Shown: piece by piece, positions 61,287-64,000 of the stretch | Layout of the letters: the number at the start of each line of letters is the position of its first letter | Position numbering within the stretch: the stretch's first letter is position 1 | Source of the DNA: Dehalococcoidia bacterium | Lineage (GTDB): Bacteria; Chloroflexota; Dehalococcoidia; Bin125 | Length of the DNA: 64,000 nt | NCBI GenBank assembly: GCA_965211635.1 | Contig: OZ242948.1 | Location: 2,054,938-2,118,937 of the forward strand | Reading direction: 5' to 3' | Position numbers and translations under genes: made by a program | The notes under the pieces: generated by a model | Databases searched by the model: none | Told to the model about the DNA's origin: nothing | What the model saw: the letters and a program-made list of their open reading frames with translations, nothing else

Positions 61287-64000
61287 GTGACCACCTCTGA
61301 ATTCGACCTGTCCATCCTCAGCGAACTGAGCGGCGCCTACGACGCCTCAGTCGTCGAGGATCCGATCTACGCCTACTGGGAAGACAATGGCTGGTTCCGA
61401 CCGAGCGGACCTTCTCTCTCCGCCTCGGCGGAGCCTGTCCGCGCGGAGGCGGGGAGGGAGGCGACGCAGGTAGAGGGGGATTCGGTCGCGGGATCCAGAG
61501 GGACCCCCTCTGTCCCTACGGGACAGCTCCCCCTGCCAGGGGGAGCGGAGGCTCGGAAGCCGTTCACGGTGATCATGCCGCCGCCCAATGTGACGGGAGT
61601 GTTGCACCTGGGTCATGCAGTGACGCTGACGATCGAGGACGTATTGATCCGTTGGCACAGAATGCTCGGCGAGCCGACGCTCTGGTTGCCGGGGCTGGAC
61701 CATGCGGGAATCGCGACGCAAAGCGTGGTCGAGCAGCAACTCGCGCGCGAGGGGATGACGCGGCACGACCTCGGTCGTGACGCCTTCGAGGAACGTGTCT
61801 GGGATTGGGTCGGCGTGACCCGACCGCGGATCACCGCGCAGGCTCGGCGGATGGGCGCGTCGTGTGACTGGGAGCGGACAGCGTTCACGCTCGACCCGAC
61901 GCCGCGCGCGGCGGTGCGCAAGACGTTCGTCGATCTGTTCAAGGACGGCAAGATCTATCGCGGCGCGCGGATCATCAACTGGGATCCGCAGATGCTGACG
62001 GCGCTCTCGGATGTCGAAGTCGAGTACGAAGAGGAAGACGGGTACCTCTGGCACGTGCGCTATCCATTCGTGGACGAGCGCGGGAACGAACTCGACGACG
62101 GCGTGGTGATTGCCACAACGCGTCCCGAAACGATTCCGGCCGACGTGGCGATCGCGGTGCATCCGGACAGCGAGCGCTGGCAACCGCACCTGGGCCGGCG
62201 CGTGCGACTGCCGCTGCGCGGCTTCAGTCGGCTGATCCCGCTGGTCGCGGACAGCGCGGTCGACCTGGAGTTCGGCACCGGGGCGCTGAAGATCACGCCC
62301 GGTCACGATCAGCTCGACTTCGAGATCGGCGAGCGGCACGGGCTGGAGCCGATCCGCGTCGTTGACTGGGACGGCTCGATGACGGCCGAGGCCGGACTGT
62401 ACGCCGGGATGGATCGGGACGGAGCTCGCACCCTGGTCGCGCAGCATCTCGAAGAGGACGGCTACCTGGTTGAGACCGAGGCGCACGTACACAACGTGGG
62501 GCACTCGCAGCGCTCGGGCGTCGTGGTGGAGCCGCTGGTCTCGAACCAGTGGTTCGTCGACACCGACGATCTGGCGGCCGAGGCGGCGCGGGTCGTGCGC
62601 GAGGGCGAAGTCAAGATTGTGCCCGAGCGCTCGACCTCGGTCTACCTGCAGTGGATGGACAACATCCGTCCCTGGTGCATTTCGCGCCAGCTCTGGTGGG
62701 GACACCGGATTCCTGCCTGGTACTGCACCGTCTGCGACGCCGCGGCGATCATTCGCGGCGACGACGGAGAGATCACGATCGACGAGGACTCGCATCCGAT
62801 AGTCGAGATGGAGGATCCGACAGCCTGCCCGACCTGCGGCAGGTCGGATCTGGTCCAGGATCCGGATGTGCTGGACACGTGGTTCTCGTCCGGCCTGTGG
62901 ACGCATTCGACGCTTGGTTGGCCCGAGACGAGCGACGACCTGTCGCGCTTCTATCCCTCGTCGGTGATGGAGACGGGCTACGACATCCTCTTTTTCTGGG
63001 TCGCGCGAATGATCATGCTGGGCTGCTTCAACATGGGCGAGCCGCCCTTCCACACGGTCTACCTGCATGGTTTGGTCCGCGACGCGCAGGGTCGGAAGAT
63101 GTCGAAGTCGCTGGACAACGTGGTCGATCCGCTGGAGAAGGCGGACCAGTACGGGATGGACGCGCTGCGCTTCACGCTTGCGACCGGCTCGACGCCGGGC
63201 AACGACATGCGCCTCACGGATGAGCGGCTTGAGGGGTCGCGCAACTTCGCCAACAAGCTCTGGAACGGGGCGAGGTTTGTCCTCGGCGAGATTGCGAATG
63301 CGGCGGATGTCGCCCAGGCTTCGTCCGGCGTAGGGGCAACCCTTGTGGTTGCCCGTCCGGACGAAGATGCGACCAACGATACGAACGGGCGACCACAAGG
63401 GTCGCCCCTACAGGAGCCGTTGGAGGACCGTTGGATTCTGTCGCGACTGCAGGCAGTAACGGACTCGGTGGATGAGTTGCTGCGCCAGTTCCAACTCGGC
63501 GAGGCGGGGCGGCAGATCCAGGACTTTCTCTGGGGCGAGTTCTTTGACTGGTACGTCGAGGCGAGCAAGGTGAGGCTGCGCAACGGGGATGCGTCGCCGC
63601 TGCCCGTGTTGGTCACGGTGCTGGACGGTGGATTGCGGCTGCTGCATCCGTGGATGCCGTTCGTGACCGAGGCGATCTGGCAACAGCTTCGGCCGTACGT
63701 ATCTGGGGAAGAGACGACGGCGTTGATCGGAGCTCGCTATCCGCAGCCCGGTGACCGGGAGAGGGACCTTGAGGCGGAAGCGGCCTTTAGCGCGGTGCAG
63801 GAGATCGTCACGGCCGTGCGCCAGGTGCGCGCCGATTACCGCGTCCAGGCCGGACAGTGGGCGGAGGCGTACGTCCTTCCGCGGATTGAGGTCGCCAATG
63901 CGGTCAGCGCCTCGGCGCCGATCGTTGAGGTCCTCTCGAGAGCGCGCCCGCTGACCATCGTCTCGAATCGTGAAGAGGCGCCGACGGAGCAGATTGCGTC
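61287..64000 (+). CDS. valS: Valine--tRNA ligase (5' ~900 codons; runs off window end) carrying two in-frame repeat-element insertions
   Basis: Own translation from GTG ~61287 (GGAG RBS 8 nt upstream): [39 protein letters not shown][insert][25 protein letters not shown]... (HIGH), later [14 protein letters not shown] (KMSKS) ~63090. Not in the ORF track because it has no stop inside the window. Confidence 0.9.
   Translation, partial: [904 protein letters not shown]
61421..61556. repeat. Family C modular repeat lying in-frame inside the valS coding sequence
   Basis: GAGCCTGTCCGCGCGGAGGCGGGGAGGGAGG..., GGACCCCCTCTGTCCCTACGGGACAGCTCCCCCTGCCAGGGGGAGCGG; same modules as the intergenic copies. 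Confidence 0.65.
63328..63414. repeat. Family B inverted-repeat element lying in-frame inside valS
   Basis: GTAGGGGCAACCCTTGTGGTTGCCC ...32 nt... GGGCGACCACAAGGGTCGCCCCTACAG; translated as ...[29 protein letters not shown]... Confidence 0.7.

Follow-up and report, generated by a model that had tools for sequence, protein, structure and literature searches.

In-frame palindromic repeats are classically associated with Rickettsia, where the Rickettsia palindromic elements (RPEs) form the families RPE-1 to RPE-10 (Ogata et al. 2000; reviewed in PMC10969869). RPEs are short (~100-150 bp), occur both between genes and in-frame within essential genes, and are translated there without destroying the protein, at positions that its fold can accommodate. 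Repetitive extragenic palindromic (REP) sequences tagged with GTAG or CGTC also lie inside genes of several bacteria. They include intragenic dimers encoding 20-30 residues, some genes are hit twice, tRNA synthetase genes are among those hit, and GTAG repeats are recorded in Chloroflexi (Di Nocera et al. 2013, PMC3733652). MITEs (miniature transposable elements with inverted repeats) with in-frame fusions, such as ERIC, QMITE1 of Coxiella and the Anabaena MITEs, are non-autonomous elements of ~50-300 bp with inverted ends that form hairpins and are occasionally intragenic and translated (PMC10969869). In the NTS-ssnA-NTS arrangement, a small GIY-YIG single-stranded DNA nuclease gene is placed between inverted, dispersed hairpin repeats (PMC11893778). 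Here we describe a comparable case in valS, the valyl-tRNA synthetase (ValRS) gene at the end of a 64,000-nt stretch of a Dehalococcoidia genome (contig OZ242948.1, positions 2,054,938-2,118,937; hereafter the window). We consider it probable, at roughly 0.85, that extra codons in this gene are a copy of a dispersed non-coding hairpin repeat that landed in the gene and survived.

By homology and motif content, the product of the window gene is a class Ia valyl-tRNA synthetase. It matches the Thermus thermophilus enzyme (1gax) with E 5e-203, its homologues contain PF00133, PF08264 and PF10458, and the signature motifs are present as HLGH at residues 107-110 (HIGH) and KMSKS at residues 604-608. 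The closest relatives are proteins of 'Chloroflexota bacterium' with up to 86% identity, and the gene order groESL, prs, secA, hypothetical gene, valS is kept in orthologous loci. From a GTG at 61287, which follows a Shine-Dalgarno-like GGAG by 9 nt, the frame stays open for 904 codons to the window end, with no stop and no frameshift. A few codons upstream, where some orthologues start at ATG, the window has AAG. A sequence-only reading of this DNA had proposed that a repeat is inserted in-frame in the N-terminal region of valS, and the peptide that it quoted is encoded exactly in this uninterrupted frame. A start downstream of the insert, which that reading named as a possible refutation, is excluded because the first 39 residues are conserved among homologues, with Y18, E24, Y28, W31, G35 and F37 invariant.

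The first insertion (site 1) is evident from an alignment of the window ValRS with 120 homologues. The spacing from WFRP to PFT is 52 residues in the window protein and 6-9 in most homologues, an excess of 43-47 codons, and the window-specific columns correspond to nt 61416-61538. The segment is thus a lineage-specific indel, as the sequence-only reading had expected. It lies in a loop just before the first Rossmann strand, the strand that leads into HIGH, and residue 89, near its end, aligns to residue 32 of T. thermophilus ValRS. The insert is without the codon-position GC pattern of its gene, with values of 0.77/0.68/0.74 against 0.67/0.45/0.84 in the rest of valS. The structural modelling that had been suggested as a check places the insert in a predicted disordered loop by the Rossmann fold. 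In an AlphaFold2 model made with 54 sequences (mean predicted local distance difference test score, pLDDT, 85; predicted template modelling score 0.83), residues 45-86 fall below pLDDT 50 within an otherwise confident structure. The only other long segment below this value is 692-707, in addition to a three-residue stretch at 682-684.

The DNA of this loop is closely similar to sequences that lie between genes elsewhere in the window. BLAST within the window pairs 61504-61533 with 9698-9727 on the minus strand (29/30 identical, E 2e-9), 61431-61458 with 35718-35745 (26/28) and 61512-61533 with 6630-6651 (20/22). Defined from its intergenic copies, this repeat (family 1) is a module of ~50 nt. 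It comprises a 5′ CCCTCT, a first hairpin in which a C-run and a G-run enclose a loop (CTCCCCC(CGC)-loop-(GCG)GGGGGAG), A/C-T-G, a short and variable second hairpin, and CAGAGGGGGG. A covariance model (CM) was built from 22 intergenic Chloroflexi copies, with the valS copies left out, and the whole window was scanned with filters off; the resulting E-values are rough. Family-1 modules are present in five intergenic places of the window (Table 1). Since the model also matches both halves of the valS segment, the site-1 insert is a forward degenerate module (A) and a reverse canonical module (B) joined tail to tail. Module A contains a long hairpin (61411-61461), and its ends (CCTTCTCTCTCC ... 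GTAGAGGGGGATTCGG) match the single canonical site-1 module of one orthologue (L001). Module B follows after a spacer of 14 nt and comprises CTCCCCC-loop-GGGGGAG, CTGTCCC-GTA-GGGACAG and AGAGGGGG.

The same degenerate (+) and canonical (-) architecture recurs in an intergenic composite at 35709-35857. Indeed, all 150 nt of the insert are collinear with 35696-35853, with a local alignment score of 41; 300 shuffles scored 21 on average and 34 at most. The earlier proposal that the segment is built from a dispersed intergenic repeat is therefore borne out by BLAST, nhmmer, the valS-free model and collinearity with the composite. The intergenic copies that it cited near 6610, 9655, 35705 and 53590 are those at 6607-6664, 9674-9732, 35709-35857 and 53598-53651. 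Repeat-derived DNA does occupy the place given for it in valS, with an extent slightly wider than the 61421-61556 proposed, at ~61403-61552. That reading had missed three points: the dimeric nature of the insert, a further insert in valS (63330-63411), and the status of both loops as recurrent hot spots. A 7-nt direct repeat, GAGCGGA, at 61403 and 61543 was considered as a target-site duplication and rejected, since the copy at 35696 has it too and it is internal to the element.

Table 1. Features of the window and of other loci (L numbers) that carry repeat modules. CM bit scores and E-values refer to the family-1 covariance model.
Feature	Position	Strand	Evidence or remark
valS (valyl-tRNA synthetase)	61287-64000	+	GTG start, continues past window end
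Site-1 insert, composite tail-to-tail family-1 dimer	61403-61552	+	translated as residues ~40-89
Module A, degenerate family-1 module	61407-61484	+	CM 17.8 bits, E 0.014, full model length
Module B, canonical family-1 module	61499-61552	-	CM 42.1 bits, E 8e-9; nhmmer 1.5e-8
Site-2 insert, family-2 inverted dimer	63330-63411	+	in-frame, 27 residues; BLAST, fold, alignment
Family-1 module between cysS and hexapeptide transferase gene	6607-6664	+	CM 40.2 bits, E 2.5e-8
Intergenic family-1 module	9674-9732	+	CM 64 bits, E 2.1e-14; DNA fold z = -5.4
Degenerate family-1 module of intergenic composite	35709-35784	+	CM 19.4 bits, E 0.005
Canonical family-1 module of intergenic composite	35804-35857	-	CM 68 bits, E 2e-15
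Family-1 module between CoA-transferase gene and groEL	53598-53651	+	CM 63.3 bits, E 3.1e-14
Intergenic family-2 dimer	12738-12821	.	BLAST + nhmmer
Intergenic family-2 dimer	38508-38571		BLAST + nhmmer
Intergenic family-2 dimer	51764-51843		BLAST + nhmmer
In-frame module in MetRS	L047 7848-7897		Paceibacterota bin; ...GWPDEKGKTPSASGISPLAGGENSESNFQKYW...
In-frame module in IMPDH-family gene	L093 876-928		Saccharibacteria bin
In-frame module in SecA	L012 2151-2204		Myxococcales bin
DUF559 gene bracketed by inverted modules or architecture-related variants	L045 2687-3282; L060 4855-5376; L076 6979-7504		
Further DUF559 loci with inverted bracketing modules or variants	L129, L135, L152, L161, L167, L186, L197		

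Dimers of the (+)(-) type with a spacer of 14-42 nt are the usual Chloroflexi form of family 1, found in the valS insert, in the composite at 35709-35857 and at loci L026, L036, L052 and L125. Five of the six reading frames of a module are free of stop codons, which leaves a length divisible by three as nearly the sole requirement for survival within a gene. Modules lie in both orientations relative to transcription, inside valS as well as between genes, and this speaks against an RNA gene or a strand-specific RNA function. A scan of the window and 12 module-bearing loci at Rfam gathering thresholds returned tRNAs only, and neither repeat family of valS is in Rfam. Papers retrieved by sequence strings were all irrelevant. 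The intergenic composite sits 45 nt downstream of a tRNA gene (35901-35972, minus). Its canonical module lies just 3′ of the tRNA in the same orientation, as does a module in Oscillibacter (L030 169-226; tRNA 344-427, minus). This pairing could be coincidence, or could reflect the setting of an integration site or a terminator.

Another loop of ValRS (site 2) is occupied by a different repeat. Family 2 is a GTAG-tagged, REP-like sequence (GTAGGGGCRACCCTTGTGGTYGCCCG) whose unit, GTAG plus GGGCGACC-CTTGT-GGTCGCCC, is arranged as inverted dimers. The two 27-nt arms of the site-2 insert are 93% complementary, one of them is identical to 38544-38571 at 28/28 positions, and the DNA folds with z = -6.8. 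Its columns are likewise specific to the window in the alignment with 120 homologues. The insert sits after a helix and before PLEDRWI, replaces the 13-residue linker 591-603 of the T. thermophilus enzyme, and is predicted to be disordered (pLDDT <50 for residues 692-707). A hairpin scan of the window found no gene besides valS with repeats of either family. One of the three intergenic family-2 dimers, at 38508-38571, separates two adjacent glutamine synthetase paralogues (37033-39942), and the second of these open reading frames (ORFs) over-extends through the repeat if its first in-frame start is taken.

Judging from the DNA of nine orthologous valS loci (L001-L003 and L123-L128), insertion has recurred at both loops across the clade, making them hot spots. 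Site 1 is empty in L002, L003, L125, L126 and L127, and holds a short extra stretch in L128, a single canonical forward module in L001, a single reverse module in L123, in a frame that differs from that of the window, and a decayed remnant in L124. The left junction GAYCCTTCY is common to the window, L001 and L124, with different interiors. At site 2, L001 and L123 have a module in forward orientation, L002, L003 and L124 one in reverse, L125 three forward copies in tandem, and L126, as the window, the family-2 dimer; L127 has nothing there and L128 has a possible remnant. In a neighbour-joining ValRS tree made with both loops masked, the window protein is sister to a group in which one member (P0002) has an empty site 1 and its nearest relatives a filled one. 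An empty site amid filled relatives indicates that modules were repeatedly gained, lost or replaced among proteins with more than 80% identity. Further, in ~150 kb of Chloroflexi loci, all intragenic matches to family 1 or family 2 are in valS, and 22 family-1 matches are intergenic.

Divergence of the flanking DNA among the orthologues is too great for an empty-site junction to be defined, and no clean element boundary was found. A preference for small palindromes as targets was also considered and rejected: a palindrome of at least 5 bp is present in 4/6 empty site-1 alleles, which is not significant against a rough chance estimate of ~0.5 per site. In L123 (GCA_022828105.1), secA at 282-3008 is called as two ORFs of 721 and 179 residues, which suggests a frameshift or an assembly error; there is no family-1 or family-2 match at this split.

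The resemblance to RPEs noted in the sequence-only reading is apt as a description of behaviour, since valS combines an in-frame insertion in a functional ORF with intergenic copies of the same repeat. The position is also one that the fold would appear to accommodate, as both inserts are predicted to be disordered and fall in loops that T. thermophilus ValRS keeps short. The likeness is claimed for behaviour alone; the host belongs to the Chloroflexota rather than to Rickettsia, and the sequence family differs. Whereas an RPE family has a single frame, encodes a single conserved peptide and hits dozens of unrelated genes, family 1 is used in several frames and both orientations, and the valS orthologues carry modules forward, reverse and in two reverse frames. 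Also unlike RPEs, the repeats hit only the two valS loops in the ~150 kb sampled, and the family-1 module is common to many phyla. The window host is probably host-associated as well, going by isolate names, as its relatives are sponge-metagenome bins.

Compared with REPs and their composites, the bacterial interspersed mosaic elements, family 2 has the exact REP format, with a terminal GTAG beside a stem-loop of 20-40 nt and an inverted-dimer arrangement. Family 1, in contrast, has neither the GTAG nor the CGTC tag and consists of two hairpins flanked by C- and G-runs. It differs from REPs and their REP-associated tyrosine transposases (RAYTs) in that a DUF559 gene, and not a Y1 transposase gene, adjoins its modules in other phyla. 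No RAYT was seen in the window, and no transposase family was hit by the 30 window ORFs scanned. With MITEs, the 150-nt valS insert has in common terminal inverted modules and a small size without coding capacity. Unlike MITEs, family 1 has no target-site duplication and no insertion sequence-type parent that we could identify, and its inverted ends are structured modules that also occur singly. Given the RPE and intragenic REP precedents, in-frame insertion of palindromic repeats is a known phenomenon. What is new here is the clade that hosts it and, in the case of family 1, a different element.

We propose that the family-1 repeat is mobile or recombinogenic at the level of DNA, and that its copy in valS survived because four conditions coincided: a permissive loop, a length that is a multiple of three, the lack of a stop codon, and simple translation into a disordered peptide rich in Pro, Gly, Ser, Ala and Glu. 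Selection would then act as a filter that removes insertions elsewhere in valS and in other genes, and the two loops may be hot because they tolerate anything, possibly with some target preference in addition. The ancestral site-1 insertion may have been the single forward module that is still found in the sister group, with the window lineage having either gained a reverse partner or replaced the single module with a dimer. Both inserts would now be passively translated. As different frames and orientations give unrelated peptides, and close relatives lack the insert, a function of the peptide itself seems unlikely.

Several points weigh against this interpretation. Neither a target-site duplication nor a clean element boundary is definable, and the 30 window ORFs scanned belong to housekeeping families only, with no transposase or nuclease candidate among them. 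Module A reaches no better than E 0.014 in a scan whose E-values are rough, and translation of the insert is a prediction from the ORF. The pattern of loop states would fit many insertions, and would also fit a single old insertion with later decay, loss and gene conversion. With no target duplication, target motif or mobilising gene found, transposition and gene conversion are both possible routes of arrival.

The alternative that follows from this last point is that copies arrived or were exchanged by homologous recombination, gene conversion or hairpin-templated repair rather than by enzyme-catalysed transposition, the loops being landing pads that are overwritten time and again. The same two sites differ in orientation, family and copy number among proteins more than 80% identical, the GAYCCTTCY junction persists around different interiors, no target-site duplication was found, and L124 and L128 resemble partial deletions of a module, all of which would suit such a process. 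However, gene conversion requires a resident homologous copy and so cannot account for the first arrival, and neither a change of orientation nor the replacement of family 1 by family 2 at site 2 is easily explained by it. The presence of the same module in unrelated genes of low-GC genomes from other phyla points instead to de novo insertion. We regard exchange by recombination as a possible but doubtful account of the valS copies. Less likely still is that the inserts are kept for a function, whether as mRNA hairpins that tune translation or stability or as disordered peptides that offer ValRS a new interaction surface. The site-1 insert does fold better as RNA than its shuffles (-98.5 kcal/mol, z = -3.0), much of the clade retains inserts at both loops, and hairpin complementarity is kept by compensatory changes across copies. 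Yet these changes are equally present in intergenic copies and in both orientations, and so reflect the element rather than valS. Moreover, the peptides vary with orientation and frame and are missing from several close relatives, and pLDDT stays under 50.

Short repeats rich in GC are well known to cause mis-assembly, and a mis-join at such repeats in a metagenome bin, or a valS copy that is a pseudogene, might produce a similar picture. The ORF upstream of valS (60252-61196) is itself absent from the records, and the 40-nt junction of modules A and B is without an exact match in a metagenome collection. This we consider very improbable, as both flanks are collinear with orthologues, synteny is conserved, the frame is kept over 2.7 kb with a GC content at third codon positions of 0.84, and HIGH and KMSKS are intact. 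In addition, comparable inserts occur at the same two sites in independent assemblies, including complete contigs of 2.6-3.5 Mb. Nor does ordinary lineage-specific expansion of the loop by slippage or duplication, with a superficial likeness to intergenic repeats, remain a serious contender. Both loops do vary in length across ValRS generally, but the 29/30 intergenic match, the full-length hit of 42 bits to a model free of valS copies and the collinearity over 150 nt effectively refute it. Insertion of a dispersed hairpin repeat thus remains the reading that we prefer for the extra codons.

The family-1 module extends well beyond the Chloroflexota. More than 119 stretches of a genome collection fit a pattern taken from the Chloroflexi copies. 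Among the matches listed, most are from Rhizobiales, and the remainder include bins of Dehalococcoidia and Anaerolineales as well as Myxococcales, Oscillibacter, Prevotellaceae, Bifidobacterium, Acidimicrobiia, Spirochaetota, Paceibacterota and Saccharibacteria. The covariance model, built from Chloroflexi copies alone, finds 186 copies in 100 of the listed loci, which are mostly outside the Chloroflexota. The second hairpin varies in sequence and remains complementary: among its 60 different versions, Watson-Crick stems average 3.3 bp, whereas shuffled sequence gives 0.45. Pairing of helix 3 is complete (100%) in the model-fitted alignment, where one of its pairs is UA in 90 sequences, CG in 51 and GC in 5. 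An outer CCCC/GGGG helix was dropped as a general feature of the module, being paired in 61% of the non-Chloroflexi copies. In three other phyla, the module is found in-frame in the genes for methionyl-tRNA synthetase (MetRS), an enzyme of the inosine monophosphate dehydrogenase (IMPDH) family and SecA (Table 1), which looks new. Two of these three genomes are low in GC, and the GC-rich module therefore stands out.

Outside the Chloroflexi, the module is also found beside a nuclease gene. On a Prevotellaceae contig, two inverted modules bracket a gene of the DUF559 family (PF04480), a Vsr-like PD-(D/E)XK endonuclease. Among the loci selected by the module, ten DUF559 ORFs adjoin modules, one in Prevotellaceae and nine in Rhizobiales. 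In a reciprocal test, 80 metagenome loci were picked by DUF559 similarity alone and searched with the covariance model, whose hits were used because nhmmer is much less sensitive there. A module lies within 150 nt of the gene, as (+) upstream or (-) downstream, at 30/80 of these loci, and on both sides at 7/80. The DNA adjoining the genes makes up 23% of the total and contains 49 of the 78 module hits (binomial p ~1e-13). The flanking modules vary in sequence between loci and keep their architecture. Bracketing of a nuclease gene by the repeat was seen in taxa other than Chloroflexi only, and no ORF of the window or of the Chloroflexi loci matched DUF559 when all were searched with hmmsearch; we infer the link to the window's genome from those other taxa. 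A module pattern is also present in at least 120 stretches of viral or prophage contigs from IMG/VR (L209-L328), where, among the matches listed, there are three DUF559 ORFs only, two of them adjoining a module.

This arrangement resembles NTS-ssnA-NTS in several respects. Both place a single-domain nuclease gene between inverted hairpin repeats of 20-50 nt, and in both the repeat has far more copies elsewhere in the same genome and a distribution that spans phyla. The flanking rates are also similar, with 31% of ssnA genes having a repeat on at least one side and 14% on both (PMC11893778), against 38% and 9% for DUF559 here. The two differ in nuclease fold (Vsr-like PD-(D/E)XK in DUF559, GIY-YIG in SsnA) and in the repeat, and the DUF559 link is drawn from sequence. 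DUF559 proteins are regarded as Vsr-like endonucleases, and one of them, Caulobacter VsrA, is held responsible for DNA damage in cells that lack the ScmA methyltransferase (PMC12907096). We found no paper connecting DUF559 with repeats, and the bracketing of its genes by family-1 modules looks new.

We tentatively suggest that the family-1 module is the cis element of a pan-bacterial selfish unit, module(+) - DUF559 gene - module(-), from which gene-less derivatives have spread. Such a cassette would be analogous to RAYT-REP and Ssn-NTS, with a third nuclease fold, and single modules and (+)(-) dimers would be its gene-less derivatives, spreading within genomes and across phyla. The near-universal availability of stop-free frames would then allow repeated in-frame fixation in loops of essential proteins, as may have happened in ValRS of Chloroflexota, in MetRS and the IMPDH-family enzyme of Patescibacteria and in SecA of Myxococcota. 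The valS insert would be the footprint of a cassette after loss of its gene, and the Chloroflexi (+)(-) dimer does have the form expected of a cassette without its gene. The association could be explained equally well by DUF559 genes inserting into repeat dimers that already existed.

In-frame selfish palindromes in essential genes have so far been mainly a Rickettsia curiosity, with scattered REP examples. In this uncultured Chloroflexota clade, two loops of one essential enzyme have been hit repeatedly, and by two unrelated repeat families. The valS loops represent a natural experiment on the positions of a protein that tolerate arbitrary peptide insertions. In practical terms, alignments are inflated by inserts of this kind, which can also mislead gene callers as well as phylogenies based on aminoacyl-tRNA synthetases. 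If the wider pattern holds, it would provide the very abundant, uncharacterised DUF559 proteins with a concrete role, and would add a third system of nuclease plus hairpin repeat to RAYT-REP and Ssn-NTS. It would also explain the low-complexity segments rich in P, G, S and E that occur in housekeeping proteins and 'hypothetical proteins' of many phyla.

The window contains a third repeat family, with four intergenic copies at 33088-33107, 48316-48335, 53770-53789 and 56286-56305 that read CCGTCATTCCCGCG(C/G)AGGCGGGAATC on the minus strand. Three of the four copies show a 27/28 match to the NTS consensus CGTCATTCCCGCGMAVGCGGGAATCYRG, which is recognised by the Ssn family of single-strand nucleases (PMC11893778), and the copy at 48316 fits less well. 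A NusG homologue (913-1827, minus) has 304 residues, and the 93 positions of the NusG N-terminal profile are spread over residues 105-236, indicating an N-terminal extension of ~100 residues and an insertion of ~40 residues. Neither the extension nor the insertion matches family 1 or family 2. At 55989-56019, a perfect CIRCE-like inverted repeat, TTAGCACTC-N9-GAGTGCTAA, overlaps the start of groES; we take it to be the operator of the HrcA heat-shock repressor. Finally, the window may lie near a replication origin, as the cumulative GC skew has its minimum at ~33-41 kb (33000-41000) and parB, parA, yidC, yidD and rnpA are located at 18.7-24.8 kb (18717-24787).

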